DNA of 64,000 nucleotides from Flavobacteriales bacterium. Lineage in GTDB: Bacteria > Bacteroidota > Bacteroidia > Flavobacteriales > BACL11. The notes beneath the pieces were generated by a model that worked only from the letters and a program-made list of their open reading frames with translations, had not been told where the DNA came from and did no database searches. The stretch is from positions 39,564 to 103,563 of the forward strand of contig JAAZYM010000078.1 of NCBI GenBank assembly GCA_014239655.1. The letters run 5' to 3'. Positions within the stretch are counted from its first letter, which is position 1. Each line of letters begins with the position of its first letter. Positions 2,595 to 50,565 of this stretch are shown here, in pieces. A program made the translations under genes and the position numbers.

Positions 2595-3695
2595 CTATAG
2601 ATTAATACGTGCACCTATAGCATGAGATCCTTGGAATGGATCAGTATGTCTATAAGAATAATCTAAACCAAAAGTACTTCCATTACCCATAGGTAGTTCG
2701 ATAGTGAATCCAGCAGAAGGCCCTCTCAATGCAGTAGTTCTAAGTTCGTCATCATTTAAACCCTCTTCATACGTATATCCAGCACGAACCATGAAATACT
2801 CTTTATATGAATATTCTGCACCTAATCTATATTGATCTTTTTGAAATGAATTAGATGTAAATGCTCCAGCACCAGTTAATCGATGTGTATTAATATTCAC
2901 GTCATATGAAAGCCCTATATTTAGTAATGCCGGAAGCTCAAATTCTGATGATCTTTGCTCTACTGTCATTTCATAATCTGGATTTAAGTAATTTCTAAAC
3001 GATATACCATCACCCGCAAACGACATTCTAGGGCCAACATTTTTTAATGAAATCCCGAATTTCAAATTGTCTTTTGCACCTGTTACATATTGGATACCAG
3101 CGTCCAAAGCAATTCCATTTGCCCCTACATTTGAAATCTGTTCAGAAATCATCTTTACTGTCATCCCTCCATAAATACTATTTGAAAATATCTTAGCATA
3201 TGAAAGAGCTATATTCATATATTTTGGAGAAAATGTCCCTATACCACCATCAGGAAGATCAACTGTTGTTATCTCAATATCTCCAAAATTCATATTCATA
3301 ACTGCAAAACCTAACACACCTGATTCTCCCATTTTTTGAGAAAATCCAAATGTACTTATACTACTAACAGAATTATTTGCATCAAACATCTTACTTCCAT
3401 ACTGTAACCATGAAGTTTGAGCGAATATTAATTCTGTTTTTGATGTAAATGCTAGACCAGCTACGTTAGAGTAGATTCCTTCTAATCCTCTAACTCCAGC
3501 TACATTTGCTCCGCCCCATCCAGATGTTCTTGCCCATGGATTAATCAATAATTCAGAGGCTCCAGCTTGACCTGCCCTTTGCTCATTACCAGCAAAAGTA
3601 TTAATACTGTAAAAGCATAAAATAAAAACTAAAAGCAGTCTTATTAATCTGTTAATTTCTTTCATATTCTTAATATTTATTTTCTCTATTATCAT
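2595..3695 (-). CDS. PorV/PorQ-family (FadL-like) outer membrane beta-barrel; start 3695 or 3665
   Basis: Signal peptide, then GQAGASELLINPWARTSGWGGA and IYSNVAGLA (the N-terminal plug signature of PorV/FadL-like proteins), ALDAGIQY, FGISLKNVG, and a C-terminal amphipathic strand. Confidence 0.85.
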   Translation of the reverse strand: MIIEKINIKNMKEINRLIRLLLVFILCFYSINTFAGNEQRAGQAGASELLINPWARTSGWGGANVAGVRGLEGIYSNVAGLAFTSKTELIFAQTSWLQYGSKMFDANNSVSSISTFGFSQKMGESGVLGFAVMNMNFGDIEITTVDLPDGGIGTFSPKYMNIALSYAKIFSNSIYGGMTVKMISEQISNVGANGIALDAGIQYVTGAKDNLKFGISLKNVGPRMSFAGDGISFRNYLNPDYEMTVEQRSSEFELPALLNIGLSYDVNINTHRLTGAGAFTSNSFQKDQYRLGAEYSYKEYFMVRAGYTYEEGLNDDELRTTALRGPSAGFTIELPMGNGSTFGLDYSYRHTDPFQGSHAIGARINL

Positions 3696-3697
3696 AA

Positions 3698-6600
3698 TTA
3701 GAATGTATCTAAATCTATTGGCCTTAATGTTCCAAACCACTTAATCACCTTCTCTCTCTTTTCACCATCTATCTCTGTAGCAACATGTATAATATAAAGA
3801 CCACTAGCAATCGGAATTCCAAAGCTATTCTTTAAATCCCAATCTATACTAGTCATAGCATCATCCTTCTTTAGCTTTCTGACCAAAGTACCATTAACGG
3901 TAAATATTGAAACTGTAGCAATAGGAGGTAAATTTGTAATCTTAATTCTATTGTCTAACTGATTCTGTTCATACTCTGAATAACCATAGTATGGATTTGG
4001 AACAACATTAATTAATTCCATAGCATCCTTAGCAACCTCAGAATCTCCTTTTGTAGCTACAAGATCGTTAGTGCTAAATTCATATATAGGGTTAAACGAA
4101 TTCTCTGGATTATATAATATTACACGTGCCTTACTACTTCCAGTAAATGAAACTGTTGTAGCTTGAAAAACATCTCCAGGAGAAAAAGTATTGCCATCAT
4201 GTGTTATTGTCTTTCCGCCCCATGTAGTAGCAGAATTCTCATATGCTACAACATACGTTTCTCCAATAACTAAATCGTCATTCTTAGTATAAAAATTTAA
4301 TCCACTAACTGTCTCATATTGTTTATATGGCTTACTAACACGAAGCTTGACTGTTGCTTCATTAGTTAATAATGATCTTCCTGGTGCTAATAAAGGAACA
4401 CCTACCCAGGATGAATTCTTAAACACCTTCCATTTACCAACTCCTGTTGCATCATCCTTTAATTGATGATAAATCCATTCACATCCATCATAATTAGGAC
4501 TATTATCAACATCAGAATAAGCTCCATTAACATAATCCTCTGTTCCTTTTACCCATGATTGTCCATTTATAACATAGATAAAATGCTTCCCTCCTAAAAG
4601 ATAATTTCCTCCAGAAATCTCTTGTGTTTGATTACTATAAAATGGAAATTGTTTTGTAACAATATTTGATGTTGGATTCCATTCCATATCATTACCGTTA
4701 TCACTTGTTAACCATGAATCCTCGGCAAAAACAATATTTAAACGCTCTCCAGTCTCTACATCTATAGCGTATCCAGGGAACCATCCCATCCCATTTCTAC
4801 CACTTCCATCTGGCGCACCAGTTTCATCAACTGATGGGCTTTCTCTTAATCCCATTTTCAGAGCACCACCAATAGCAAGATCAGGATTTTCTTGAGCTTC
4901 TACAATAACACATCTACTCCATTTTGCTACACTATCGGTAAATACAATATTGACAGAGTTAAGATTCTCCATCCTATTCTGCGAAGTAATAGAACTATTT
5001 AGTCCAGGACCATCATTATAATAAGAAACAAAACGATATGGAGCCCATGTTCCTCCTGTTGTTTCAAAAGTAAGATCTCCTATACCAAAAGGCACCTCTG
5101 AGAACGTCGTAGTAATTGTTTGCTCAATTACACTCTCAAAAACACTAGCTGGATCATCAGCCTGATTGTAATCACTATACAATCCATTATTATCATCAGT
5201 ATATGTCCCTGATCTTATCCAATTTAATCCCCAAAATTTTAAAAAGCCACCCTCATCATCACGATCTGGAACTCCACTTAACCATCTATCGTTAATATTT
5301 TCATATTCAATTGATGAAGAAACTAAACCATTATTATCAATATTTGTAGGGTCAGCACCAGGATTTAATGATTGCTTAACTTTTACATTTAATCCAAGGT
5401 CTGATATATATTGTTCAGAACCAACAGTAATTGATTGATTTGATGATCCTAAAACTGAACCATCTGAATTATTAATTAATTCCCAGCTATTATAAGAGGA
5501 GATAGCACTCCCGCTAAATTCAGGATCAAATAATTTAAATGTATAATTTCCCTGCGGAATTTTTACTGGATCAACAACAGTAATATTTATAGGGCCATTA
5601 CCAGCAACATATGTAGGATTATATACTCTATGATCATCACTATTTAAAATCTTCTTAATACTAGCCGCTGTTAATTCTAAATTATTACCTCCATTTCCAG
5701 TACCTTCAATTCTAGTAATAGAGACCCCATCTCCATATGAAGCGTTTAATGTAGTTCCGCCTTCATCAGGCTCTGTATAATGAGGTATTGCGCTATACAC
5801 TTTTATATTCCTTCTACCTCCAATATAGGGTTGATTTCTCCCATCATATTCTGTGCTATTTACATCATATGGGTCAGCATTCTCTTCAGCTCTATTATAA
5901 CCATAAGCTAACGACATAAAATAATATGTTTTATGATTTACTAATCTAGTATTACCAAGTGCAAACTTATCATCTGTAACTTGGAAAGAATATTCTGTAC
6001 CCTCATCTACAGAACCCAAAACACCATCACTTAATACAGAAGAAACCTCTTCAATTGGGGTATATACTCCAAGTAATGGATCTAAATATTGATTTACTAT
6101 TCCTGTTACTGTATCATTCACATCAGAACGAAAAACTAATCTTGCTAAATCAGGATCGTCTAAATCTGTTACAGAAACTGTGTTGTTTTTTAATTGATAT
6201 ACTAAATATCCCTGAAATGTATATGCTGAATCAGTAAGTAAATTTGCAGGCTTTGTTATATAAGGATCTTTTTCTCTATAACTCTCATCTATATTATTGG
6301 AAGTTGGTCCATTAGACAATGTAAAGATAAGTTCTTTGTCCAACTCTCGGACTTCTACGTCTGGAGCATCAGGACCATTTAAAATATTAAAATTATTATC
6401 AAATAATGCCTGTGCTTCTCTGTCATAAATTTTTACTAAAGCAATGGAAGCAGTTTGCCCTCCTGATTTTGCTCTTGCCCAAACTACACCAGTTGTAATC
6501 TCATTAACCGCTCCTGGTTGTAATGTAAAAGGTCCTGCTGATTGAAGAAATCTTCTGTCTGCAGGAATATTACCAGCTGTTTGTTCAGTCCACTCAGTAC

Positions 6601-7906
6601 CAGCAAAAGCATCATCTGATGTTCCTGGGAACATAAAATTACATAAATCAGTCGTTGTACCCTGACCAGAACCATGGCCATCACCACCATATGTCATAGG
6701 AACATTATCTTTCCAGATTCCTCTTAAATAGTTGTAAAAATGAGTCCCCTCTGAAGGATTACCTATTACAGTAAAGTCATTGTTATAATAAACAAACTTA
6801 GACATAATAATTTGCTCATTAAGCTCATCTATAGTTCCATCTCTATCGTTATCAATACCATCATTAGGATCTGCTAAAGGTCCTTGGAAAAAATCTACTC
6901 CAATTGCTGGGGGATTAAACCCATATCCTGCTGCTCCTTCATCCTCAGCATCCCCATTATAACAAAAACCTAAACCTAGATTAACATCACACCCTACATA
7001 ATCATCCAAATAATAACCTAAATCAGGATCTACCCATTGTCCAAAATATGTGTCATTCAGTGGTAATGTTGATCTATTAATAATTTTATAATTGTAAAAA
7101 GTCATGTCATTCACCTCATTATCAGCAGTAAAACCAAATGCTTGAGCATGAATTTCCAAACCTAAAGGAGAAGCCTCTGTCTCACTATGAATATTTCCTT
7201 GATCATTAAAGACCCACCATAATGTTTGATCTCCATATAATTTTGCATAATCATTTGATCCAGTAATATTATAATCTGGATAATCCCCATCATATGGATT
7301 GTAAACACCTCCATCTTGACCTGCGTCATAAAAAGGAGCTAAATTAAAATCTTGACCTAATGCAGGATTCCCATGTGCTGGCCAATTTTCAATAATATCT
7401 GGCATTACATACGTAGGGTCTAGATAGTTTGCTACATGCTCCTCAACTTCAGTTCTGGTAATTTTAAAATGTTTATCCCAAACATTACATTGCTCAGGAG
7501 ATATTGTTGCAGTTGTTGTATTTAATGGTCCCGTCCAAAAATCACTACCACCTTGTCTATATGTCATTGCTGCAACTTTTAATTGTCCTCCAGCATCTAC
7601 ACCTCCAATCCATAGGGCTCCGGCAAACATAGAATGCTTGTTTCCATCCTTTGGGATCTCATACCTAGCATCATCTAAATTCCACCACATATCACCTGCA
7701 GCCATGATAGTTGTTCTTACATTATTAACATCTAAATCTGTTTTTGATATAGATGGAGAACATCCTGAAGCAATCTTTGTATAAACAACATTACCTATAT
7801 TAGGATTAGGTATATTTTCTTTTGCAAAAACATTAATACATGCGAATGCTAATGTGAAAAGAATAATTCTCTTTGGGTTATTAATCATATATGCTATTTT
7901 TTTCAT
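3698..7906 (-). CDS. Large secreted protein (1402 aa) with a T9SS-type C-terminal sorting domain
   Basis: Signal peptide; acidic DGIDNDRDGTIDE calcium-binding-like loop; C-terminal domain INVVPNPY...IFTVNGTLVRKL...WDLKN...IASGLYIIHV. Confidence 0.85.
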   Translation of the reverse strand: MKKIAYMINNPKRIILFTLAFACINVFAKENIPNPNIGNVVYTKIASGCSPSISKTDLDVNNVRTTIMAAGDMWWNLDDARYEIPKDGNKHSMFAGALWIGGVDAGGQLKVAAMTYRQGGSDFWTGPLNTTTATISPEQCNVWDKHFKITRTEVEEHVANYLDPTYVMPDIIENWPAHGNPALGQDFNLAPFYDAGQDGGVYNPYDGDYPDYNITGSNDYAKLYGDQTLWWVFNDQGNIHSETEASPLGLEIHAQAFGFTADNEVNDMTFYNYKIINRSTLPLNDTYFGQWVDPDLGYYLDDYVGCDVNLGLGFCYNGDAEDEGAAGYGFNPPAIGVDFFQGPLADPNDGIDNDRDGTIDELNEQIIMSKFVYYNNDFTVIGNPSEGTHFYNYLRGIWKDNVPMTYGGDGHGSGQGTTTDLCNFMFPGTSDDAFAGTEWTEQTAGNIPADRRFLQSAGPFTLQPGAVNEITTGVVWARAKSGGQTASIALVKIYDREAQALFDNNFNILNGPDAPDVEVRELDKELIFTLSNGPTSNNIDESYREKDPYITKPANLLTDSAYTFQGYLVYQLKNNTVSVTDLDDPDLARLVFRSDVNDTVTGIVNQYLDPLLGVYTPIEEVSSVLSDGVLGSVDEGTEYSFQVTDDKFALGNTRLVNHKTYYFMSLAYGYNRAEENADPYDVNSTEYDGRNQPYIGGRRNIKVYSAIPHYTEPDEGGTTLNASYGDGVSITRIEGTGNGGNNLELTAASIKKILNSDDHRVYNPTYVAGNGPINITVVDPVKIPQGNYTFKLFDPEFSGSAISSYNSWELINNSDGSVLGSSNQSITVGSEQYISDLGLNVKVKQSLNPGADPTNIDNNGLVSSSIEYENINDRWLSGVPDRDDEGGFLKFWGLNWIRSGTYTDDNNGLYSDYNQADDPASVFESVIEQTITTTFSEVPFGIGDLTFETTGGTWAPYRFVSYYNDGPGLNSSITSQNRMENLNSVNIVFTDSVAKWSRCVIVEAQENPDLAIGGALKMGLRESPSVDETGAPDGSGRNGMGWFPGYAIDVETGERLNIVFAEDSWLTSDNGNDMEWNPTSNIVTKQFPFYSNQTQEISGGNYLLGGKHFIYVINGQSWVKGTEDYVNGAYSDVDNSPNYDGCEWIYHQLKDDATGVGKWKVFKNSSWVGVPLLAPGRSLLTNEATVKLRVSKPYKQYETVSGLNFYTKNDDLVIGETYVVAYENSATTWGGKTITHDGNTFSPGDVFQATTVSFTGSSKARVILYNPENSFNPIYEFSTNDLVATKGDSEVAKDAMELINVVPNPYYGYSEYEQNQLDNRIKITNLPPIATVSIFTVNGTLVRKLKKDDAMTSIDWDLKNSFGIPIASGLYIIHVATEIDGEKREKVIKWFGTLRPIDLDTF

Positions 7907-7925
7907 ATTACTAATTTCTTCTTAT

Positions 7926-10900
7926 TTAAAATTGAAAACTTAAACCAGCTCTGATCATTCTAGGTAAGCTATAATTACTAGGATTATTTACTGCTAATGA
8001 ATAAAGATATCTAAATGCGTCAGGACTATTCTGTGCATTAATAGCATTCTGAGCAGCAGAAGAAGTTAAATAACCATCATCATCTGGATTTCCAGTTGCT
8101 CTATAAACACTAATAATATTTCTTGCATCCAATAAATTCTGAATTTGAACATACACATTTACATTAGAACTTTTCTTATCAGACCATTTAATTTCAAATT
8201 CTTTATTAATCTTAGCGCTTATTCTAAACTGCCATGGCAGACGAGATCCATTCAAACTTCCTTCTAAAGTTGATCTATCATTAATTCCAGAAGCAGCTTC
8301 TTGTGTAATATTAGATTGCTTACTATAAGGGGTTCCAGAACCAGCTGAAAGAACCATATTAGCTCCTGCATTAGCAAAAATATTCTTACCAAACCAAACA
8401 GGACCATCATAATCTTTTCCTGAGCCATAATGATAATCAACAGAAGCAGATAATGCATGTCTTTGGTCATATGCTAATGGAATAGTTGATCTTAAATTTG
8501 GCTGACCCGTGTTAACTAAACTCTGTCCAGATGAAGCACTAGATCCAGTTCCATCGGCAAACTGTAATGTATAATTAGCTGTCATACTAATATTATTAGT
8601 TCTTCTAAGATCAAAATTAACAGACATTCCTTTTACAGTTCCAAAATCAATATTTCCATAAGTCAGATACTGCGCTGGATAAGCCCCTAAAACATTCACA
8701 ACTTGAATCATATCTCTTAATTCTTTATAGAATGCAGAAATTTTTAAAGCAGAACGTAATGATAATGTTTTAGCAAATCCCAACTCATAATCAACAGTCT
8801 TTTCAGATTTAAGATCAGGATTATTTAATAACGCACCAACTCTATCAGCCATAAATAAATAATCCACAGGCTCTAATCGATTTGATTGTGGCGGACGTTG
8901 TGTTAGAACATCATAATGAGCAAAAAATTGAGCCTCATCAGAAATTGGAAAAGAGAAAGCTATTCTTGGCATAAAGACTGTCTCTGGCGTATAATCTTCA
9001 AATGCATTATCAACATTAACCTCTCCTTTTAATGCTGCCACTGGATCTTGAAGATACGGTTGTATCTGCCCTCCTGCAGCCTCTGCTAATAAATTAGGAT
9101 CAGAAATTTGCAATCCTTCTGCATTATACCAAGTCTCATTATCTCTATAACCAACTATTGTTGAAGGATTAGATACATCATCTACATAGACAACATAATC
9201 ATCACCAATAGTTGTAGGATGACCATTTGGCGCTAAATCCTCCCAGAATAAATCTTGACTCATAAAACCAGTGATTGGATCGATGATCGCCGCTCCTGCT
9301 GTATAGGATTGGTGTAATAGATACTTATCAGATAAAACTTTTTGGTTTGCATCATATCTGTCAATTCTTAACCCAATATTGAAAATTAGATCTTCAATAG
9401 CAAATTTATCTTGAATATAACCAGCCGTATAGATAGGCTGAAAAGATGCAATCTCTCTAGTATAATTTCCATTTTCATCTTGTTTTTCAAAGAACTCTTT
9501 TAACGTTGGATTAGTAGTTAATTTATTACCATAGATATCATATCCAAAATAATACGCTAAACTTGAACCACTATTAAGAAGCTCATCTTGACTAAACATT
9601 CCAACATCAAATTGATTAGGTAATAAGGAATCAATATCAATAAATAAAGTTGAGGTAGCCTCTAAACCTAATGATGCTCTTAAACTTCTATCAAACCATG
9701 ATTGCTCAGTACCAACATATAATCTATCATAGTTGACGGTATCTTGGTAAACACCATTCATGTCATATACAGGATTTGGCTCAGCTAGATTACGCTGTAA
9801 AATATGCTTATTCGTTTGTTGCCTCATAAGACCCCACATTCCCATTGGGCCAATACCCCAATATGAATCATCTCTCTGTTCAAATTCAAAACCAAATGAG
9901 AATTCATGATCTTTAATATCTGCAGAACCAGAAGCTTTGAAAGTATATTGTGTGTTCTCTTGCTTAGCAGCCCCATTATACATACTACCATGATTACCAT
10001 ATAATGAATAAACTGAAGCTGGTAAGTCTCCATTTCTTAACCCCTGTCCTCTTAAATCAGCAGCTGTTCTAATAACACCATCATTCTCTGTCCCAACATA
10101 TGAAGCAAGACCATAATCGCTAAACATCCGATAATATGCATTTGTATAGTTAGCTAAATCAATATTTGTATACTCATTCTCATTGAATCTATATAGCGTG
10201 TCTCCCCAACCAGAATGAATCTGACCTGTATATATTATTCCAGTAGAGGAATCAATAGCAGAACCTCCATTATAAATATTCTTATTAAAAGTATGAAACT
10301 CTCCTACATATCCATATTTAAACAAGTCAAACTGATGATCCGCATCAACATAAGTATACTTGTTATTTGTATAGTCTCCCTGGATAGTAAAGAATGCATT
10401 CTTAATTGTTGCCGAACTATTCTCTTCATTAGACTCCTCGGAACCAAACTTCTGAGTTAATTTTCCAAAAAGACGATATGTTGTTTGAGATGACTCTCTA
10501 TTATTCGCAGAAGAAAACATTGAACGCCATCCAGAAAAATCTCTACTTGTTCTACTATAAAAAACCCCTCCCAATGAAAGAAATGTAGTATTTGTAGGTT
10601 TAAAGTCTAATTTTCCAGAAACATTAAATCTCTGTTCATTAGAATTAAGTTTTGCCTGAACATTTTCAAAATTCTCTTCAGTTAAAAAATCAGATTCGCT
10701 TAGAAAACCTGCAGCTGCGTTAGGTGCAATCCGAAATGGATTTTCTTGAAGACCCTTAAGTACATCATCTTTCACTTTCCATCTTCCTATAGCTGATGGA
10801 TCTGTATCGTCTACATTTCTATATTCTCCAGAAAGAAAATACCCAAGTATAGAGCTCCCTTTAGTTCCATCAGAATTTCTTTTCTTTAAGATAGGGCCGG

Positions 10901-11657
10901 ACAAACCAAATCCTAGTAAATTATAATTATACTTATCAAATAATGAAGAAGACTCTAACTCAATACCACCAAAAAACTTATTTGATGGGCCTTTAGTAGT
11001 TACAGCAATAATACCTCCAGTTGCATCACCATATTGAGCAGGAAGTCCTCCAGTAACAACAGTAATCTGTTCTATACCAGAAGTTGGCACACCAAGTGCA
11101 CCCCTTACTTTAATTCCATCTACATAATAAGCAGTTGCATTTTCTCTTGAACCACGCATATTTACCGCATCACCTTCATCTTTTTGATAGATCCCAGCTG
11201 TTGTAGAAGCCACAGAAGCTACACTTCTAGTTGGTAAAGCAACAATCTCTTCAGCTGTTTTAGTTTCACCAGATAAATTATCTTGATCTAATAACGGTTT
11301 TTTATATTCTATAATCTTAATCTCTCCTAGAGCAACCCCTTCTTGTAATTGAACATCTTGAAATGTTATCTTATTTGCTGAGATAATAACTCCCGTAATC
11401 TCAACCGTCTGATACCCAACAAATGTCGCTTTTACTGAATAGTTTCCTGGCTCAATTGGTTTGATTGTATATTTTCCGTCAAAATCAGTTGTTGTTCCTG
11501 CATACTGATCACCACCTTTCTCAATAACAACATTAGCAAAAGGAATTGGTTCTCCTGTCATTACATCATTTACAATCCCCTTAAGTGTCCCTGTTTGTGC
11601 AAAAGCGAAAGAAGCAAAAAAGACTAATGCAACTATTGAATAAATTTTTCTCAACAT
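7926..11657 (-). CDS. TonB-dependent receptor with N-terminal carboxypeptidase-regulatory-like domain
   Basis: Signal peptide; TGEPIPFANV...TTDFDGKY...VGY domain; plug NMRGSRENATAYYVDG and GGLPAQYGDATGG; NPDLKSEKT; C-terminal PRMIRAGLSFQF. Confidence 0.92.
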   Translation of the reverse strand: MLRKIYSIVALVFFASFAFAQTGTLKGIVNDVMTGEPIPFANVVIEKGGDQYAGTTTDFDGKYTIKPIEPGNYSVKATFVGYQTVEITGVIISANKITFQDVQLQEGVALGEIKIIEYKKPLLDQDNLSGETKTAEEIVALPTRSVASVASTTAGIYQKDEGDAVNMRGSRENATAYYVDGIKVRGALGVPTSGIEQITVVTGGLPAQYGDATGGIIAVTTKGPSNKFFGGIELESSSLFDKYNYNLLGFGLSGPILKKRNSDGTKGSSILGYFLSGEYRNVDDTDPSAIGRWKVKDDVLKGLQENPFRIAPNAAAGFLSESDFLTEENFENVQAKLNSNEQRFNVSGKLDFKPTNTTFLSLGGVFYSRTSRDFSGWRSMFSSANNRESSQTTYRLFGKLTQKFGSEESNEENSSATIKNAFFTIQGDYTNNKYTYVDADHQFDLFKYGYVGEFHTFNKNIYNGGSAIDSSTGIIYTGQIHSGWGDTLYRFNENEYTNIDLANYTNAYYRMFSDYGLASYVGTENDGVIRTAADLRGQGLRNGDLPASVYSLYGNHGSMYNGAAKQENTQYTFKASGSADIKDHEFSFGFEFEQRDDSYWGIGPMGMWGLMRQQTNKHILQRNLAEPNPVYDMNGVYQDTVNYDRLYVGTEQSWFDRSLRASLGLEATSTLFIDIDSLLPNQFDVGMFSQDELLNSGSSLAYYFGYDIYGNKLTTNPTLKEFFEKQDENGNYTREIASFQPIYTAGYIQDKFAIEDLIFNIGLRIDRYDANQKVLSDKYLLHQSYTAGAAIIDPITGFMSQDLFWEDLAPNGHPTTIGDDYVVYVDDVSNPSTIVGYRDNETWYNAEGLQISDPNLLAEAAGGQIQPYLQDPVAALKGEVNVDNAFEDYTPETVFMPRIAFSFPISDEAQFFAHYDVLTQRPPQSNRLEPVDYLFMADRVGALLNNPDLKSEKTVDYELGFAKTLSLRSALKISAFYKELRDMIQVVNVLGAYPAQYLTYGNIDFGTVKGMSVNFDLRRTNNISMTANYTLQFADGTGSSASSGQSLVNTGQPNLRSTIPLAYDQRHALSASVDYHYGSGKDYDGPVWFGKNIFANAGANMVLSAGSGTPYSKQSNITQEAASGINDRSTLEGSLNGSRLPWQFRISAKINKEFEIKWSDKKSSNVNVYVQIQNLLDARNIISVYRATGNPDDDGYLTSSAAQNAINAQNSPDAFRYLYSLAVNNPSNYSLPRMIRAGLSFQF

Positions 11658-11760: not shown

Positions 11761-12174
11761 ATGAAAACCACAAAATTATTATGTTATTTTATGCTCATTC
11801 TAATGTCCTGTAGCGATAGTAATGATTACATTAGAAATGTATATGTAAATATTGATATTGATCTTAGTTTACCTCAATATAGTGAAATTAATACCATTGG
11901 AAATAGTATGTTTATTGAAGGAGGAAATAAGGGTATAATAATCTATCATTATTCAAACTATGAATACAAAATATATGATAGAAATTGCAGTTATGAACCT
12001 TCTCTAAACTGCTCCTATATAGATTCAATTAATTCAAGTATTGCTCTTTGCAACTGTTGCTCCTCAGCCTTTTTACTTGATCAAGAAGGTAGTGCTGCTA
12101 ATAGCCCCGCATTATTACCTTTAAAGCAATACAATTCCAGTCTCAACAACACTTTACTGCATATCTTTAATTAA
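11761..12174 (+). CDS. Rieske-fold-like lipoprotein with non-canonical ligands
   Basis: Lipobox LMSC; YDRNCSY...LCNCCSSAF...G...PALLPLKQY follows the Rieske spacing. Confidence 0.7.
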
Positions 12175-14854: not shown

Positions 14855-15451
14855 ATGAATGAGGCAATTCAAATTCTACATACAATAACATCTCAAGTCA
14901 GTTTAATTGAATTTTTAGCAGTTTCTTTTAGTATTATATATGTTATACTAGCTGCTAATGGAAATATTTGGTGCTGGCTAGCTGCTATTATTAGCGTTAG
15001 TTTATATGTCTATATATGCTATAATGCAAAATTATATGCAGAAACTATACTTCAAGTATTTTATTTGCTTATGGCGTTTTGGGGTTATTTCTCTTGGAAG
15101 AGCATGAATACAAAGAATACTATACAAGAAATAACATTATCAAGCCATATTCTATTTATATGTTTTGGCGTTGTTTTCACATTCATCAGTGGATATTTAT
15201 TCAGTATTTACTCAGATGCAAAGATGCCTCTAGTTGATTCTTTTACGACAATTTTTAGTCTTATCGCAACCTATATGGTGGTTAAAAGAATACTTTCAAC
15301 CTGGCTTTATTTTATTGTAATTGATATAGTATCGATTTATCTTTATTACTCAAGAGACCTGTATTTTTCTTCGATTTTATTTATAATCTATAGCATAATT
15401 GCTGTTATTGGATATTATAATTGGACTAAAATTCTAGTTAACAATGATTAA
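14855..15451 (+). CDS. pnuC: PnuC-family vitamin/nucleoside transporter
   Basis: NIWCW, LYAE..LQ.FY...GY..W, DSFTT and W...I..D motifs. Confidence 0.9.
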   Translation: MNEAIQILHTITSQVSLIEFLAVSFSIIYVILAANGNIWCWLAAIISVSLYVYICYNAKLYAETILQVFYLLMAFWGYFSWKSMNTKNTIQEITLSSHILFICFGVVFTFISGYLFSIYSDAKMPLVDSFTTIFSLIATYMVVKRILSTWLYFIVIDIVSIYLYYSRDLYFSSILFIIYSIIAVIGYYNWTKILVNND

Positions 15452-15947
15452 AGTAATAATAACAGGCCCTGAATGCTCTGGAAAAACCACATTATGTGAT
15501 AATCTATCAAAACACTTTAATGCAAAAAAAGTGGATGAATATGCAAGAGAATTTCTCAATAAATCTAATAACAATTACAAATACAATGATTTAATTACTA
15601 TTGCTAAAAATCAATATAAAAATGAAAAAAATAATTATCTCGGGAAAATGATTTTTTGTGATACCGATTTAATAACGATTAAAATCTGGTCTGACTATAA
15701 GTACCAGAAATGTGATGATTGGATTACACAAAAAATTAATTCTCAAAAAAAAGAGAAGAGAATCTATATTTTATGTAAACCTGATTTGCCATGGGAATAT
15801 GATCCTCAAAGAAAAAACAAAGATAGTCGTGATGAGCTTTTCAATACTTATAAAAAAGAACTAATAAAAAATCAATATGAATTCTTTGTAATTCAAGGAA
15901 AAAACAGATTTAACAACACTATAAATTATCTGAAAAACATTATATAA
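15444..15947 (+). CDS. NadR-type P-loop kinase/ATPase (AAA_28)
   Basis: Walker A GPECSGKTT, EYAREF, FCDTD and LPWEYDPQR. Confidence 0.85.
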   Translation: MIKVIITGPECSGKTTLCDNLSKHFNAKKVDEYAREFLNKSNNNYKYNDLITIAKNQYKNEKNNYLGKMIFCDTDLITIKIWSDYKYQKCDDWITQKINSQKKEKRIYILCKPDLPWEYDPQRKNKDSRDELFNTYKKELIKNQYEFFVIQGKNRFNNTINYLKNII

Positions 15948-16116: not shown

Positions 16117-18312
16117 ATGAAAATATCTAATTTCATTCTATTTATAATATGTCTTCCTAGTTTTTCTTTGGCACAAACAACTGATTCTGTAAATATAAAA
16201 AGAACCCTAAACGAAATAAATATAAATGCCATTCGAGCAGATTATACAACTCCAGTTGCATATACAAACTTATCAAAAACTGAAATCGAAAAATCAAACC
16301 TAGGACAAGATTTACCATTCCTTATTTCTCTCTCTCCATCCATAGTAACAACATCTGATGCGGGTGCAGGAATTGGATATACAGGTTTTAGAATAAGAGG
16401 AACGGATCCTTCAAGAATAAATGTTACTATTAATGGAATACCTATTAATGATTCTGAGAGCCAAGGTGTATGGTGGGTAAATATGCCCGATTTTGCATCT
16501 TCTCTTGAAAATATCCAAATACAAAGAGGCGTTGGAACTTCTACAAATGGAGCTGCAGCATTTGGAGCAAGCATAAACTTAAAAACAATGAATATAAATA
16601 ATGATGCTTATGTAGAAACCAATAATAGTATTGGCTCTTTTAACACATTAAAAAACAATATTAAATTTGGATCAGGAGTAATTAGTGATAAGTTTACATT
16701 TGATGCAAGGCTATCAAAAATTATCTCTAATGGATATATTGATCGTGCTTCATCAGATTTAAAATCACTATATCTTCAAGGAACATATTTTAATAAAACA
16801 TCAATACTGAAAGGGATAATTTTCTCAGGGAATGAAAGAACCTATCAAGCCTGGAATGGCGTTCCTCTCCAATATTTAGATACTAATCGGACATTTAACA
16901 GCTATACTTATGAGAATGAAGTTGACAATTATTTTCAGACACATTATCAACTTCACTACAAAAGAAACTTAAACTTAAATACAAATTTGAATGTTGCAGG
17001 TCATTTTACTCATGGTGAAGGATATTATGAACAAGAAAAATTAGATCAGAATCTTTCCAATTACAGTCTCTCAGATATAATTTTTGAAAATGACACAATA
17101 ACATCAACAAACTTAATTAGAAGAAAATGGCTTAACAACGATTTTTGGGGCATCACCTATTCTATAAATCATAAACAAGAAAGAATTAATCTAATTCTTG
17201 GAGGTGCATATAACAGGTATAGTGGGCAACATTATGGAAATATAATATGGTCAGAATTTGCAAGTGACAGTCATTATAATCATGAATACTACAGAAATAT
17301 TTCTACAAAATTTAACAATAATATCTTTATAAAATCTGATTATCGGGCATCAAGAAAGACATCTGTTTTTATTGATCTACAATTAAGAAACATAGACTAC
17401 AAATTTAATGGGAATGATATTGATGGGAATTTAGACGGACAAAATGTAGAATTAGAATTCTTCAATCCAAAATTTGGAATAACACACAAAGTAGATAAGC
17501 ATCAAGCTTTTTATGGATCATACTCGGTTGCAAATAAAGAACCCAATAGGAGTGATTATGTTGAGAGCAGTCCAAATTCAAGACCGTTGCATGAAACCCT
17601 TTATGACACAGAAATTGGCTACAAGTACAAAAATAAGAGGCTAATGTTTAATGCAAATCTATATTATATGGATTATGACAATCAACTTATAAAAACTGGA
17701 GAAATTAATGATGTTGGCTATTTTACAAGTAAAAATGTTAAAAAATCATTTAGACGAGGGATTGAACTAGAGGCGGCTTATTTAATAAGCTCAAGAATAC
17801 ATATCAGTGGAAATCTAACTCTAAGTGAAAATAAATTGGATATTTTAAGACAATTTATTGATAATTGGGATACAGGAATTCAAAACGAAATAGTTCATCA
17901 AAACACTGATCTTGCATTTTCACCAAAAATAATATGGGCAACAAATGTTAACTTTAAACTTAATAACAACACAGATATTAACTTTAATTCAAAATATGTA
18001 GGAGAGCAATTTATTGACAATACATCTTCTACGGAGAGAATGCTTAATGATTATCTAATAAATAATCTGCAGATTAATTATAGCATTAAGAATCCTGTTT
18101 TTAAAATAGCTAAAATCAGTTTGCTAATAAATAATATCTTTAACAACGAATATATCAGTAATGCCTGGCTATATAGGTTCATATCTAATCATTCAGATCC
18201 TAGAGAAAATGATCATTATGTTACTAAGGGTTCAGATAATATTTATAATATGGCTGGTTACTTTCCACAAGCTAAAAGAAACTATCTATTTGGATTAACA
18301 TTAGGATTCTAA
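16117..18312 (+). CDS. TonB-dependent receptor, probably for thiamine or a related compound
   Basis: Plug TSDAGAGIGYTGFRIRG, NGIPINDSESQGVWWVNMPD, QRGVGTSTNGAAAFGAS; C-terminal GYFPQAKRNYLFGLTLGF; riboswitch upstream. Confidence 0.93.
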   Translation: MKISNFILFIICLPSFSLAQTTDSVNIKRTLNEININAIRADYTTPVAYTNLSKTEIEKSNLGQDLPFLISLSPSIVTTSDAGAGIGYTGFRIRGTDPSRINVTINGIPINDSESQGVWWVNMPDFASSLENIQIQRGVGTSTNGAAAFGASINLKTMNINNDAYVETNNSIGSFNTLKNNIKFGSGVISDKFTFDARLSKIISNGYIDRASSDLKSLYLQGTYFNKTSILKGIIFSGNERTYQAWNGVPLQYLDTNRTFNSYTYENEVDNYFQTHYQLHYKRNLNLNTNLNVAGHFTHGEGYYEQEKLDQNLSNYSLSDIIFENDTITSTNLIRRKWLNNDFWGITYSINHKQERINLILGGAYNRYSGQHYGNIIWSEFASDSHYNHEYYRNISTKFNNNIFIKSDYRASRKTSVFIDLQLRNIDYKFNGNDIDGNLDGQNVELEFFNPKFGITHKVDKHQAFYGSYSVANKEPNRSDYVESSPNSRPLHETLYDTEIGYKYKNKRLMFNANLYYMDYDNQLIKTGEINDVGYFTSKNVKKSFRRGIELEAAYLISSRIHISGNLTLSENKLDILRQFIDNWDTGIQNEIVHQNTDLAFSPKIIWATNVNFKLNNNTDINFNSKYVGEQFIDNTSSTERMLNDYLINNLQINYSIKNPVFKIAKISLLINNIFNNEYISNAWLYRFISNHSDPRENDHYVTKGSDNIYNMAGYFPQAKRNYLFGLTLGF

Positions 18313-47583: not shown

Positions 47584-50565
47584 TTATTGTAAAATTACTT
47601 TCTTAGTAAGAATACTATCTATCTTTCTTAGTTTAACAAAATATATTCCATTTGAATAATTTGATAAATCTAATTGATTAGAATATTTAACATTATTATG
47701 TTCTAAGTTTTCATTATATATTTCATCTCCTAATACATTCATAATTGAGAGAGAAATAATATTATTATTCACAAACTCTATATTAAGCAATCCACTTGTT
47801 GGATTAGGATATAGTAATAATGTAGAAGGATCTAAATCATTAATATCCGTGCTTGTATAAACATATTGATTACTCCAATCTTGACATCCATTTGAATCGG
47901 TAACAGCACACCAATAAGTTCCGCTTGAATCTGGAAGTATCCATTGTGTTGTCTCATTGGTATTCCACTCATATGTATATGGAGGTGTACCAGTTGATAC
48001 AATTACAGATAATGTGTCACCATTTTGAACTACTGTAGCGTCAGTTGGACTATCATGAATTGTAAGATCTAGCGTTACTGTACTATCACAACCATTAACA
48101 TCAGTATATACATTAGTATACATTCCTGTTGAATCATAAGTCACACCATCCCAGTCATATGAATCACAAGCAGACATTGTAACTGTTGATGAACTACTAT
48201 TGTTAATTGTAAGATCTAACGTTACTGTACTATCACAACCATTTGAACCAGTATATACATTAGTATACATTCCTGTTGAATCATAAGTCACACCATCCCA
48301 GTCATATGAATCACAAGCAGTGATTGCAACCGTTGATGATGAACTGTAGTTAATTGTAAGATCTAACGTTACTGTACTATCACAACCATTAACATCAGTA
48401 TATACATTAGTATACATTCCTGTTGAATCATAAGTCACACCATCCCAGTCATATGAATCACAAGCAGACATTGTAACTGTTAACATAGGATCGCAACAAA
48501 TAATCTGTGAAAAAGATTGAATATCAACATGGCCTAATTCAGAAGTGATTGTTGTTGTGAAATTCAATAACGTGGTATTTGGATTAACAAATAGATTGCT
48601 GAATGTAGCAGTAGAAACATAACCATTCGTTGAGGAATTTCCATCTGCAGGACTTGTAGCAATAACACTTACGCCTCCAGTACTTAGATTTGCAACTCCA
48701 AAAGTACCCAAGACAACTCCAGAAGGATCAACTGACTCTACTTCAAAGTCATCTACAGTATTTATTGTACTTAATACTAGGTTCGAGTTTACATTAGTGC
48801 CACCAGCAAATAAAACATTCGCACTACCAACAACATCACCAACAACTAAACCAGTGATATCAAATGAGCCTCCATCAGAAACAAAAACTGCTGAATCAAT
48901 ATCAGCTTCACCCGCATCTTGAGACACATCAATAGTTAAGTCAGTTAAAGTATTACATGTATTATCTGATGTCCCAACAGTAACAGTTGGTGAAAAATCA
49001 ATACATGACATATAATGTGTGAAACTTTGATTATCAACCTCCCCTAATTCAGAAGTAATTGTTGAATTGAAATTTAGCATTCCACTTGTTGGATTATGAA
49101 ATACACTATTGAATGTTACACTAGATGAATTTCCACCAGTTAATGAATTATTATCTCCAGGGCTTGTAGCGGTTATACTAATACCTCCTCCACTTAAATT
49201 CTCAATTGAGAATGAATTTCCTAATGAATCAGAAATCACTGCAGTAGTACCAGTTAAAGAACTAACATATAAGCTAGTGTTATACGTTCCAAGGCTATTA
49301 GTAAATGAAGCAGATCCAATATTATCTCCAATAGCCATTGATGATATTGTAAATGAACCTCCATCAGAAACAAATAAAGCGCTTGCCATATCTGTCTCCC
49401 CAGCATCTTGACTAACATTAATTGTTAAGCTAGATAAACTATCACAATCATAATTAGATAATGATGTTGAAACTGTAGGTGAAAAATCAGCACAAGACAT
49501 TAATACATTGATTGATTGATTATCAACTTGCCCAATCTCTGAAGTAATTGTTGAAGTAAAACCTAAAACTCCAACACTTGTATTATTATAAATATTAGTA
49601 AGAGTTACAGAAGATGAATTTCCGCTTGTTGTATAATTATTATCTCCAGGACTTGTTGCGCTTACACTAACACCTCCTCCACTTAGATTCTCAATCAAAA
49701 AAGAATTAGAAAAATTATCAACCAAAGTAGCAGAGCTTCCACTTACACTACTTACAAATAAATCAGTAGTATATGTATTAGATGTAGTAGTTACAGTAGC
49801 GTATCCTACCATATTTCCGACACTCAATGATGCCAAATCAAATGAACCTCCATCGGTCATAAATAAAGAAGCATCCATATCAATTTCACCAGCATCCTGA
49901 CTTACCTGAATAGTTACATCAGTTAAAAGTCCGCAGTCATTATTAGATAAAATTAGATTCACGCTAGGAGAAAAGTCAGCACATCCCATAAACTGAACAA
50001 TGGATTGATTGTCAACATCCCCTAACTCAGAGGTAATAGTAGATGAAAACGTTAATACTGATGTTGACGGATTAACAAACAAATTATTAAACGTTGCATT
50101 TGATGTGTATCCTCCTGTTGTCGTGTTGCCATCACCAGGACTTGTTGCTGTAATCTCAATCCCATTAGTTAGATTCTGAAGAGTGAAAGACCCTAATGTT
50201 CCACTGTTATCAACAGAAAGCACAATAGTACTCCAAGAAGATGTTGCGCCAACAATTAAGGTAGAGTTAATTGTAACACCAGAAGTTAATGTCATATCTG
50301 CTGTTCCTAATGTATCTCCAACATTTACACTTGCTAAATCAAATGAACCCGCATCTGATGTAAATACAGAAGAAGCTATATCAGTCTCTCCCTGATCTTG
50401 ACTAACATCAATACTTAAATCAGCAAGCTGTCCGCAATTTAGATTAGATAAGTTAACACCAACTGTTGGTGAGAAGTTTTGTGAATAACTATTTAAAGAA
50501 ATTATAGATGCTGCTAAAAAGAAAAATAGGTTCTTTAAAAAGTTTAAATTGTAGTTTTTTTTCAT
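47584..50565 (-). CDS. Repetitive Ser/Thr/Asp-rich T9SS type A cargo (surface protein or adhesin)
   Basis: Signal peptide; 4 repeats of ~165 aa; 3 repeats of 49 aa; SprB-like GTPPYTYEW; CTD LYPNPTSG...SNGIYFVKL...KKVILQ. Confidence 0.88.
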   Translation of the reverse strand: MKKNYNLNFLKNLFFFLAASIISLNSYSQNFSPTVGVNLSNLNCGQLADLSIDVSQDQGETDIASSVFTSDAGSFDLASVNVGDTLGTADMTLTSGVTINSTLIVGATSSWSTIVLSVDNSGTLGSFTLQNLTNGIEITATSPGDGNTTTGGYTSNATFNNLFVNPSTSVLTFSSTITSELGDVDNQSIVQFMGCADFSPSVNLILSNNDCGLLTDVTIQVSQDAGEIDMDASLFMTDGGSFDLASLSVGNMVGYATVTTTSNTYTTDLFVSSVSGSSATLVDNFSNSFLIENLSGGGVSVSATSPGDNNYTTSGNSSSVTLTNIYNNTSVGVLGFTSTITSEIGQVDNQSINVLMSCADFSPTVSTSLSNYDCDSLSSLTINVSQDAGETDMASALFVSDGGSFTISSMAIGDNIGSASFTNSLGTYNTSLYVSSLTGTTAVISDSLGNSFSIENLSGGGISITATSPGDNNSLTGGNSSSVTFNSVFHNPTSGMLNFNSTITSELGEVDNQSFTHYMSCIDFSPTVTVGTSDNTCNTLTDLTIDVSQDAGEADIDSAVFVSDGGSFDITGLVVGDVVGSANVLFAGGTNVNSNLVLSTINTVDDFEVESVDPSGVVLGTFGVANLSTGGVSVIATSPADGNSSTNGYVSTATFSNLFVNPNTTLLNFTTTITSELGHVDIQSFSQIICCDPMLTVTMSACDSYDWDGVTYDSTGMYTNVYTDVNGCDSTVTLDLTINYSSSSTVAITACDSYDWDGVTYDSTGMYTNVYTGSNGCDSTVTLDLTINNSSSSTVTMSACDSYDWDGVTYDSTGMYTNVYTDVNGCDSTVTLDLTIHDSPTDATVVQNGDTLSVIVSTGTPPYTYEWNTNETTQWILPDSSGTYWCAVTDSNGCQDWSNQYVYTSTDINDLDPSTLLLYPNPTSGLLNIEFVNNNIISLSIMNVLGDEIYNENLEHNNVKYSNQLDLSNYSNGIYFVKLRKIDSILTKKVILQ
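48061..48481. repeat. Three tandem near-identical 147-bp intragenic repeats
   Basis: Units begin at 48061, 48208 and 48355 (tgtaagatcta.cgttactgtactatcacaacc...). Confidence 0.95.
48495..50475 (-). repeat. Four diverged 163-167-aa domain repeats
   Basis: FSP starts at 50475, 49974, 49485 and 48996; shared VSQD.GE.D, DGGSF, ATSP.D.N and TITSE.G.VD.QS motifs. Confidence 0.92.

Follow-up and report, generated by a model that had tools for sequence, protein, structure and literature searches.

We analyzed a stretch of 64,000 nucleotides (nt) from a Flavobacteriales bacterium of the BACL11 lineage of Bacteroidota (assembly GCA_014239655.1, contig JAAZYM010000078.1, positions 39,564 to 103,563 of the forward strand), here called the window. 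Our subject is a cassette of three adjacent genes encoding a TonB-dependent transporter, a secreted protein that we term the cargo, and an outer-membrane barrel of the PorV/PorQ family. The open reading frame (ORF) listing places the trio co-oriented on the minus strand in the reading order transporter, cargo, and barrel (coordinates are those of the window; aa, amino acids):

7926-11657, minus strand: TonB-dependent transporter, 1243 aa (Pfam CarboxypepD_reg and Plug matches; AlphaFold2 model)
3698-7906, minus strand: secreted cargo, 1402 aa (TIGR04183 C-terminal domain; AlphaFold2 model of residues 30-700)
2595-3665, minus strand: PorV/PorQ-family outer-membrane barrel, 356 aa (NF033709 match; ORF open to a GTG at 3740, 381 aa)

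The gap between transporter and cargo is 19 nt (7907-7925), and that between cargo and barrel is 32 nt with the barrel ATG at 3665 or 2 nt with an ATG at 3695; the start at 3665 is most likely because the resulting N-terminus fits 30 homologs. Sec-type signal peptides were read by eye at the N-termini of all three proteins. A preliminary description of this DNA, made from its letters and ORF translations, had proposed three co-oriented genes with gaps of 19 and 2 to 32 nt, for a 1243-aa TonB receptor with very large loops, a 1402-aa secreted protein with a sorting-type C-terminal domain (CTD), and a PorV/PorQ-like barrel. The ORF coordinates bear out the arrangement, and all three assignments were upheld: the receptor by a Plug match and ∼500 extra residues in its model, the secreted protein by a CTD that proved weak and divergent, and the barrel by a score above the cut-off of its family model.

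The transporter matches the Pfam families PF13620 CarboxypepD_reg (63.5 bits), PF13715 (52.5 bits), and PF07715 Plug (42.2 bits; cut-off, 23.9). Its CarboxypepD_reg-type N-terminal extension, residues 24-105, resembles the solved extensions of a TonB-dependent receptor (E 4.9e-5) and a SusC homolog (E 1.2e-4), and a candidate TonB-box beta-strand motif, read by eye only, lies between extension and plug. PF00593, on record for most homologs, was not reported for this protein at E<=0.01. An AlphaFold2 model of residues 110-1243 (41 sequences; predicted local distance difference test score [pLDDT], 87.5; predicted template modeling score, 0.85) indicates a plug inside a 22-strand-type barrel, the classical transporter fold. 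Its structural matches include PirA (Z 38.5; 504 residues aligned; root mean square deviation [rmsd], 3.4), Cir (Z 37.9), and BtuB (Z 37.4), and Foldseek likewise matched PirA (E 5.6e-27). Because only ∼500 to 630 of the 1134 modeled residues align to classical transporters, ∼500 residues lie outside the canonical core. Identification as SusC was rejected, as the TIGR04056 score of 51 bits (cut-off, 368.25) came from model positions 2-207 only. Neither PorF nor Oar is named among the NCBIfam and Pfam matches of the transporter, with which no direct sequence comparison of either protein was made.

The cargo matched no Pfam family at E<=0.01, and when it was searched in four pieces at E<=1 only a sub-threshold CTD was returned. 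Its C-terminus matches the NCBIfam model TIGR04183 Por_Secre_tail at 26.3 bits (cut-off, 23); in a genome-wide scan with the same model it scored 30 bits and ranked 42nd of 44, with the CTD of PorU itself at rank 44. The CTD, at residues ∼1298-1390, is divergent and type-A-like, has invariant residues in the alignment, and is followed by a conserved C-terminal tail. Some 10 to 14 conserved residues extend beyond the last CTD strand, which is not so in the 7 ordinary CTDs of the host genome that were compared. An AlphaFold2 model of residues 30-700 (31 sequences; pLDDT, 81.7) predicts that the N-terminal module (∼residues 49-508) is a galactose-mutarotase-like beta-supersandwich. Its best structural match was the GH15-type N-domain of a dextran dextrinase (9ju0; Z 19.1; 253 residues aligned; rmsd, 3.2), followed by N-domains of GH15, GH94, GH65, and GH116 enzymes, aldose epimerases, and the periplasmic domain of YidC. 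The cargo has further beta-rich parts besides this module, and its segment ∼700-1260 is an insert common only to its class; the domain limits were drawn from distant homologs. No catalytic or known binding domain was recognized by Pfam or by structural matches of residues 30-700, and there is no lipobox. A likeness to azurin, from a sequence search against solved structures, was discarded as being at chance level (E 0.27).

The barrel scores 132.4 bits against the PorV/PorQ model NF033709 (cut-off, 90; 130.6 in the genome scan), over profile positions 3-325 of 326. It falls below the equivalog cut-offs for PorV (NF033710; 57.3 versus 250), PorQ (NF033711; 67 versus 220), and PorV2 (NF052325; 38.8 versus 325). 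In a maximum-likelihood phylogeny of 62 PorV-family rows, those longer than 430 aa being cut to their last 400 residues, PorV formed a clade with 100/100 support and a PorQ-like group, including two stand-alone paralogs, received 100/97; one very long branch was left unplaced. The barrels found beside this cargo type formed a 30-row clade with 100/100 support outside both of these groups, and all 49 cassette barrels were joined by a weakly supported branch (77/92). The possibility that the barrel is simply the housekeeping PorV was rejected, given this separate clade and the presence elsewhere in the genome of a PorU-PorV pair and a PorQ-like gene.

The host genome (assembly of 1.46 Mb, 88.5% complete) encodes a type IX secretion system (T9SS). 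SprA was matched at 2555 bits (cut-off, 200), one contig (C11) carries a PorU-like gene (1118 aa) directly followed by a true PorV (438 bits), and another (C6) carries a PorQ-like gene beside cmk and lon. There are 44 matches to the type-A CTD profile. No protein of this 88.5%-complete assembly passes the SusC cut-off (TIGR04056; best score, 130.9 versus 368 bits), and none matches SusD (PF07980), which, given the incomplete genome, is reported as not found rather than absent.

The cargo family has thousands of members, 60 to 90% identical and all unnamed. It was detected in 62 of 68 genomes of the host's taxonomic family and in all 21 of the high-quality ones, as well as in 85 of 151 genomes of an even sample of the phylum (E<=1e-5), a count in which many of the weakest matches may be CTD-only. 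Neither the 10 genomes sampled from one family of this order nor the 31 from another family gave a match. Beyond the phylum there was a single lead, a Fidelibacterota cluster of the Atlas (score, 0.91). A transporter homolog lies directly upstream of the cargo homolog at every locus with upstream flank (38/38 among 39 loci, L005-L043, the locus described here included; L009 lacks this flank). For the 20 most distant loci wider stretches were fetched, and the order transporter, cargo, and barrel was kept in all 19 of these other-class loci with enough downstream flank, at sizes of ∼940 to 1140 aa, ∼1000 to 1190 aa, and 340 to 376 aa, respectively. Among the 80 best named loci from Flavobacteriales-type metagenome-assembled genomes (MAGs), obtained with a 10-row alignment as the query and counted only where the needed flanks were present, the cargo was accompanied by the transporter in 50/69, by the barrel in 41/57, and by both in 36/51. 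Full cassettes occur in MAGs labeled Vicingaceae and Cryomorphaceae, families that include cultured genera.

The cassette is not unique to this locus and belongs to a large family that occurs in multiple copies in other classes. Five complete genomes contain 3, 14, 17, 6, and 16 PorV-family matches, and the gene before almost every such paralog ends in a match to a CTD profile built from the cargo; the PorU that precedes PorV also fits this profile. We took 20 further PorV-like paralogs, each with 9 kb of upstream sequence, from three other-class genomes. Eighteen follow a related transporter, with an intervening CTD cargo in 16 cases and directly in 2, and the other 2 stand alone and group with PorQ in the tree. 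The 16 paralogous cargoes range from 705 to 1319 aa, and 9 keep a match to the N-terminal module. The extra C-terminal tail is confined to the subfamily of the cargo in the window; other cassette cargoes end as ordinary type-A CTDs. Across 19 cassettes from the three genomes, distance matrices correlated at r values of 0.93 (transporter/barrel), 0.86 (transporter/CTD), and 0.80 (barrel/CTD), and none of 2000 permutations gave values as high as those observed. These correlations show inheritance and duplication of the cassettes as units. It is hard to square this record with three unrelated neighbors that adjoin by chance: order and orientation are kept in every other-class and transporter-cargo locus counted above, 18 of the 20 further paralogs follow a related transporter, 16 of these with a CTD cargo between, and the three proteins co-diverge. 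We found no observation that favors mere adjacency, and we consider it extremely improbable.

In two loci (L178 and L182) the barrel directly follows the transporter, with a cargo-like gene at another position in the stretch, and the two barrels are sisters in the tree. The genes after other-class cassettes also recur. There is often a GWxTD-domain protein (5 loci: L125, L135, L136, L141, and L143), and elsewhere a multiheme cytochrome c with tetratricopeptide repeats (3 loci: L126, L128, and L129) or an NHL-repeat protein (2 loci: L134 and L138). A GWxTD search of the host genome returned no match, and control genomes were likewise unmatched, so this search is uninformative. At one of these loci (L135:10663-19998), three tandem cargo paralogs without transporters or barrels of their own stand behind a complete cassette and its GWxTD gene.

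We modeled the complex of the barrel (356 aa) with the last 163 residues of the cargo, using a 31-row alignment for each. The score was 0.91 (runs of 0.92, 0.91, and 0.91) versus 0.02 for the best control; at least 92% of contacts agreed among runs, and the pLDDT of the partner was at least 68. In calibration, 58 of 80 solved complexes reached the mark, as did 2 of 110 mismatched pairs; these rates are approximate here, where our own alignments were supplied. The predicted interface takes in the conserved start of the CTD as well as the C-terminal tail, and 11 of the 17 invariant columns of the CTD alignment fall within it, as counted from the alignment and the model. This controlled model supports a predicted binding of the cargo CTD by the barrel, a prediction that may echo the solved complexes of PorV.

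Fourteen sequencing runs on record as RNA contain part of the stretch. Four marine metatranscriptome runs, each from a different study, have contigs that cover the whole trio at identities of at least 95%, and in one of these runs 30/30 bins were covered. The cargo/barrel junction is bridged by contigs of two runs (3593-3920 and 3565-3907); among the contigs listed, none bridges the transporter/cargo junction, which shows nothing either way. Scans for sigma-70 promoters (47 promoter-like sites versus 51.8 expected) and terminators (5 terminator-like sites versus 4.0 expected) were at chance level and say nothing on an operon.

Housekeeping genes flank the cassette, among them greA, HIT, ruvC, and S-adenosylhomocysteine hydrolase. 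As the preliminary description had stated, no SusD, carbohydrate-active enzyme, or regulator is found among the neighboring genes. Its description of a cassette of three genes is accurate as far as the trio goes, and one further conserved gene adjoins that may make a fourth:

11761-12174, plus strand: predicted lipoprotein, 137 aa, divergent from the transporter; lipobox read in sequence; possible fourth component

Of the 50 Flavobacteriales-type loci with the transporter, 15 have a homolog of this lipoprotein within 700 nt of that gene on the opposite strand, so a count of three may be too strict for the cassette. At one more such locus the homolog is 3 kb away from the transporter, and none was found in the other-class loci. 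The protein has no Pfam family at E<=5, and Atlas clusters matching it are from Bacteroidota only and ∼140 aa long. It contains a cysteine-rich conserved motif and shows a faint likeness to Rieske proteins (one homolog at E 0.11; 11% of one Atlas cluster). Its lipobox, as read in the sequence, is followed by acidic and polar residues, and a lipobox followed by such residues is an export signal of surface lipoproteins.

Elsewhere in the window, a PnuC-type nicotinamide mononucleotide transporter adjoins an AAA_28 protein (14855-15947, plus strand), and after these comes a second, ordinary TonB-dependent receptor of 731 aa (16117-18312, plus strand). Another type-A CTD is located at ∼47587-47814 (minus strand) in a 998-aa frame.

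On balance we lean, with slightly better than even confidence, toward the reading that the three genes form one operon that builds an outer-membrane module for capture and import, with the cargo anchored on a private barrel. All three proteins would enter the periplasm by Sec, and the cargo would cross the outer membrane via the T9SS of the genome using its divergent type-A-like CTD. This CTD, with its family-specific tail, would not go to the housekeeping PorV and the sortase PorU and would be bound by the extracellular face of the barrel encoded directly downstream. The barrel would act first as a private carrier and later as a permanent anchor in the membrane, in the manner of PorQ with PorZ and PorV with PorU, with the CTD presumably retained. 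The anchored cargo would display its supersandwich module and capture a substrate that is probably polymeric, such as a glycan. The co-encoded transporter, with its ∼500 extra loop residues, would contact the cargo and import the captured substrate. Such a module would correspond to SusC-SusD-type pairs while depending on the T9SS and not on SusD.

The preliminary description had likewise taken the locus for a self-contained uptake or sensing machine in which a T9SS-exported protein, held on its own PorV paralog, serves as lid or capture subunit of the receptor. Three of the analyses that it proposed speak for parts of that view: the neighborhood survey found the trio to be co-conserved across the phylum, the phylogeny against bona fide PorV and PorQ set the barrel apart as a third paralog, and the modeled CTD-barrel complex scored far above its controls. 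That view is qualified by cassettes in many copies, cargoes without a cassette, and the adjoining lipoprotein gene. Of the two halves of our reading, the better supported is the role of the barrel as carrier or anchor, through adjacency, a clade of its own, co-divergence, the complex model, and the PorQ and PorV precedents.

Several points weigh against the capture-and-import reading as a whole. What ties the transporter to the other two genes is synteny and co-divergence, and co-divergence is expected for any linked genes and so is no proof of binding. Because PorV-substrate complexes already have solved structures (PMC10994853, which also sets out the concept of a carrier protein), the passing complex score may reflect a known interface. 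A pass is also possible for close relatives of a true partner, and the score shows no preference for the cassette barrel over the housekeeping PorV. The cargo CTD scores below the cut-off of Pfam PF18962 (16.9 versus 27). Foldseek gave TM-scores of 0.15 to 0.28 for the N-terminal module, the fold emerging clearly only from an all-against-all structural search, and a supersandwich is an accessory fold that shows no function. Contigs from RNA libraries may contain DNA, and a contig spanning two genes is no proof of a single transcript. Finally, in 15 of the 51 Flavobacteriales-type loci with both flanks, a cargo paralog (∼1340 to 1430 aa) has neither transporter nor barrel, so the cargo family can exist outside the cassette (L054, L062, L071, L072, L076, L083, L094, L098, L099, L102, L103, L109, L113, and L114, among others). 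These stand-alone paralogs keep the same CTD and tail, and at least one MAG holds both an orphan cargo (L054) and a full cassette (L066).

Such orphans speak for a rival reading in which the three functions are coupled without a physical complex. The barrel would then only shuttle a T9SS-secreted enzyme or binding protein, perhaps released or anchored to lipopolysaccharide after CTD cleavage, and the transporter would import the products, as in a polysaccharide-utilization locus without SusD. A locus on another contig of the host (C19; L194:3113-7638, minus strand) speaks for it too. A 946-aa transporter with CarboxypepD_reg, Plug, and barrel domains is followed, after a gap of 65 nt, by a 539-aa BD-FAE esterase with an ordinary and strong type-A CTD (55 bits) and no PorV-like barrel adjoining; pairs of transporter and T9SS cargo may be a wider theme in this genome, in which SusD was not found. 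The ordinary type-A CTDs of other cassette cargoes point the same way, as does an N-terminal module whose fold is typical of carbohydrate-active enzymes. Shuttling in transit, however, requires no private barrel for each cargo, as the housekeeping PorV serves 40-odd CTD proteins, and the tight co-divergence of barrel, CTD, and transporter counts against coupling alone. Moreover, the cargo has no recognized catalytic domain, and its CTD is among the most divergent of the genome, next to the retained CTD of PorU. We regard coupling alone as a serious and yet rather unlikely account.

A different role for the transporter also has to be weighed, in which the TonB-type protein is not an importer and acts as a partner in secretion or assembly or as a structural element, helping the cargo-barrel pair to be inserted or kept in place, with a surface layer or a structure for envelope integrity as the product. 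Oar of Myxococcus, with PopC, is a possible parallel. In the genomes of the small-genome family to which the host belongs, the cassette is single-copy, 60 to 90% identical among relatives, and present in all 21 high-quality genomes, which is the pattern of a core envelope component; the two cassettes with the barrel directly after the transporter would also fit. PorF (PG0534), which resembles a TonB receptor, is needed for gingipain secretion (PMC8564354), and the precedent of PorF and CHU_1606 would fit secretion better than import, a further point against the reading that we prefer. Against a secretion role, our transporter keeps a full plug and the N-terminal extension of Bacteroidota importers, whereas PG0534 is said to lack a plug (PMC8564354). 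In addition, the many divergent copies per genome, with N-terminal cargo parts that vary (705 to 1319 aa in total length), look like diversification toward substrates. We judge this role improbable.

Our verdict is that the cassette is a real, widespread, and uncharacterized combination of two known principles. We found no published description of a cassette of transporter, CTD cargo, and PorV-like barrel in the literature searched, which excludes most subscription journals, and the statement of the preliminary description that no functional characterization of this architecture was known agrees with that outcome. More tentatively, and short of an even chance, the cassettes may be a phylum-wide, T9SS-dependent counterpart of SusC-SusD, in which a third class of carrier, besides PorV and PorP/SprF, permanently tethers a capture subunit to or next to its transporter. 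The 6 to 17 PorV-family genes per genome in classes outside Bacteroidia would then mark the main loci for polymer uptake, and in streamlined marine Flavobacteriales without SusC/SusD the single copy would be a core nutrient gate.

Bacteroidota feed on polymers via TonB-dependent transporters with surface partners, and the partners known so far (SusD, BtuG, and XusB) are lipoproteins. If the capture-and-import reading is true, the T9SS builds import machines in addition to exporting enzymes and adhesins, and the PorV-family paralogs, numerous in some classes, acquire a function. For those abundant marine Flavobacteriales that have 1.5-Mb genomes and apparently lack SusC/SusD, the cassette would be a defined candidate for the main route of high-molecular-weight uptake. 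The idea can be tested, since the cassette is covered by contigs of marine RNA libraries and is present in MAGs of families with cultured genera.

The closest relatives of the proposed anchor are found within the T9SS itself. PorZ keeps its CTD on PorQ and PorU its own on PorV, and a protective role toward CTDs has been proposed for cognate PorV-like barrels (PMC10202324). As in those pairs, we propose a CTD retained on a barrel of the PorV family, and in the host genome porU is directly followed by porV, the same order of cargo and then barrel. The likeness to PorU extends to the CTD, both the cargo and PorU being among the weakest matches to the type-A profile. Unlike PorQ and PorV, the cassette barrel falls in a separate clade and scores below the cut-offs of their equivalog models; the cargo is related to neither PorU nor PorZ, a TonB-dependent transporter precedes the pair, and the arrangement is multi-copy in other classes.

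In pairs of the SprB-SprF type, a carrier barrel is encoded beside a cargo with a type-B CTD, and the cargo stays attached after export (PMC10994853, PMC10202324). The cassette shares with them a dedicated carrier barrel that adjoins the gene of its cargo. It differs in that carriers of the PorP/SprF kind recognize type-B CTDs, whereas here a barrel of the PorV/PorQ family would bind a type-A-like CTD. To our knowledge, the SprB-SprF pair includes no transporter.

A barrel that holds a surface protein is also known outside the T9SS, where the FadL-like barrel BamG holds BamH, a surface lipoprotein (PMC12578637). In both cases a FadL/PorV-like barrel holds a large surface protein by its extracellular loops, in ours by prediction. 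BamH differs in being a lipoprotein and its pair belongs to the beta-barrel assembly machinery, with neither a T9SS signal nor a transporter. An association of a TonB-type protein with PorV has a precedent in Cytophaga hutchinsonii, in which the TonB-dependent receptor CHU_1606 co-purifies with PorV; it resembles PorF, and PorF is said to lack a plug (PMC8564354). The cassette transporter is like PorF and CHU_1606 in being a TonB-type outer-membrane protein with a functional or physical association, in our case a proposed one, with PorV or the T9SS. These proteins are unlike it in that they are not described as adjoining a cargo and a private barrel, and PG0534 is said to be without the plug that our transporter has.

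For the import side of the proposed module, the models are SusC-SusD, BtuB-BtuG, and XusA-XusB. Like these, the cassette sets a transporter beside the gene of a surface accessory, occurs as pairs that have multiplied and diversified, and has an extension of the CarboxypepD_reg type; the structures of XusA-XusB and BtuB3-G3 are among the fold matches of our transporter. Unlike SusC, the transporter fails the SusC model (51 versus 368 bits), and no SusD was found in the genome. The accessories of SusC-SusD-type pairs are lipoproteins that sit on the transporter, whereas the cargo has no lipobox and carries a T9SS CTD and a barrel of its own. A surface partner for a transporter and a cognate carrier barrel for a T9SS cargo are each known already, whereas their combination, and its spread in many copies across the phylum, was not met with in the literature searched.

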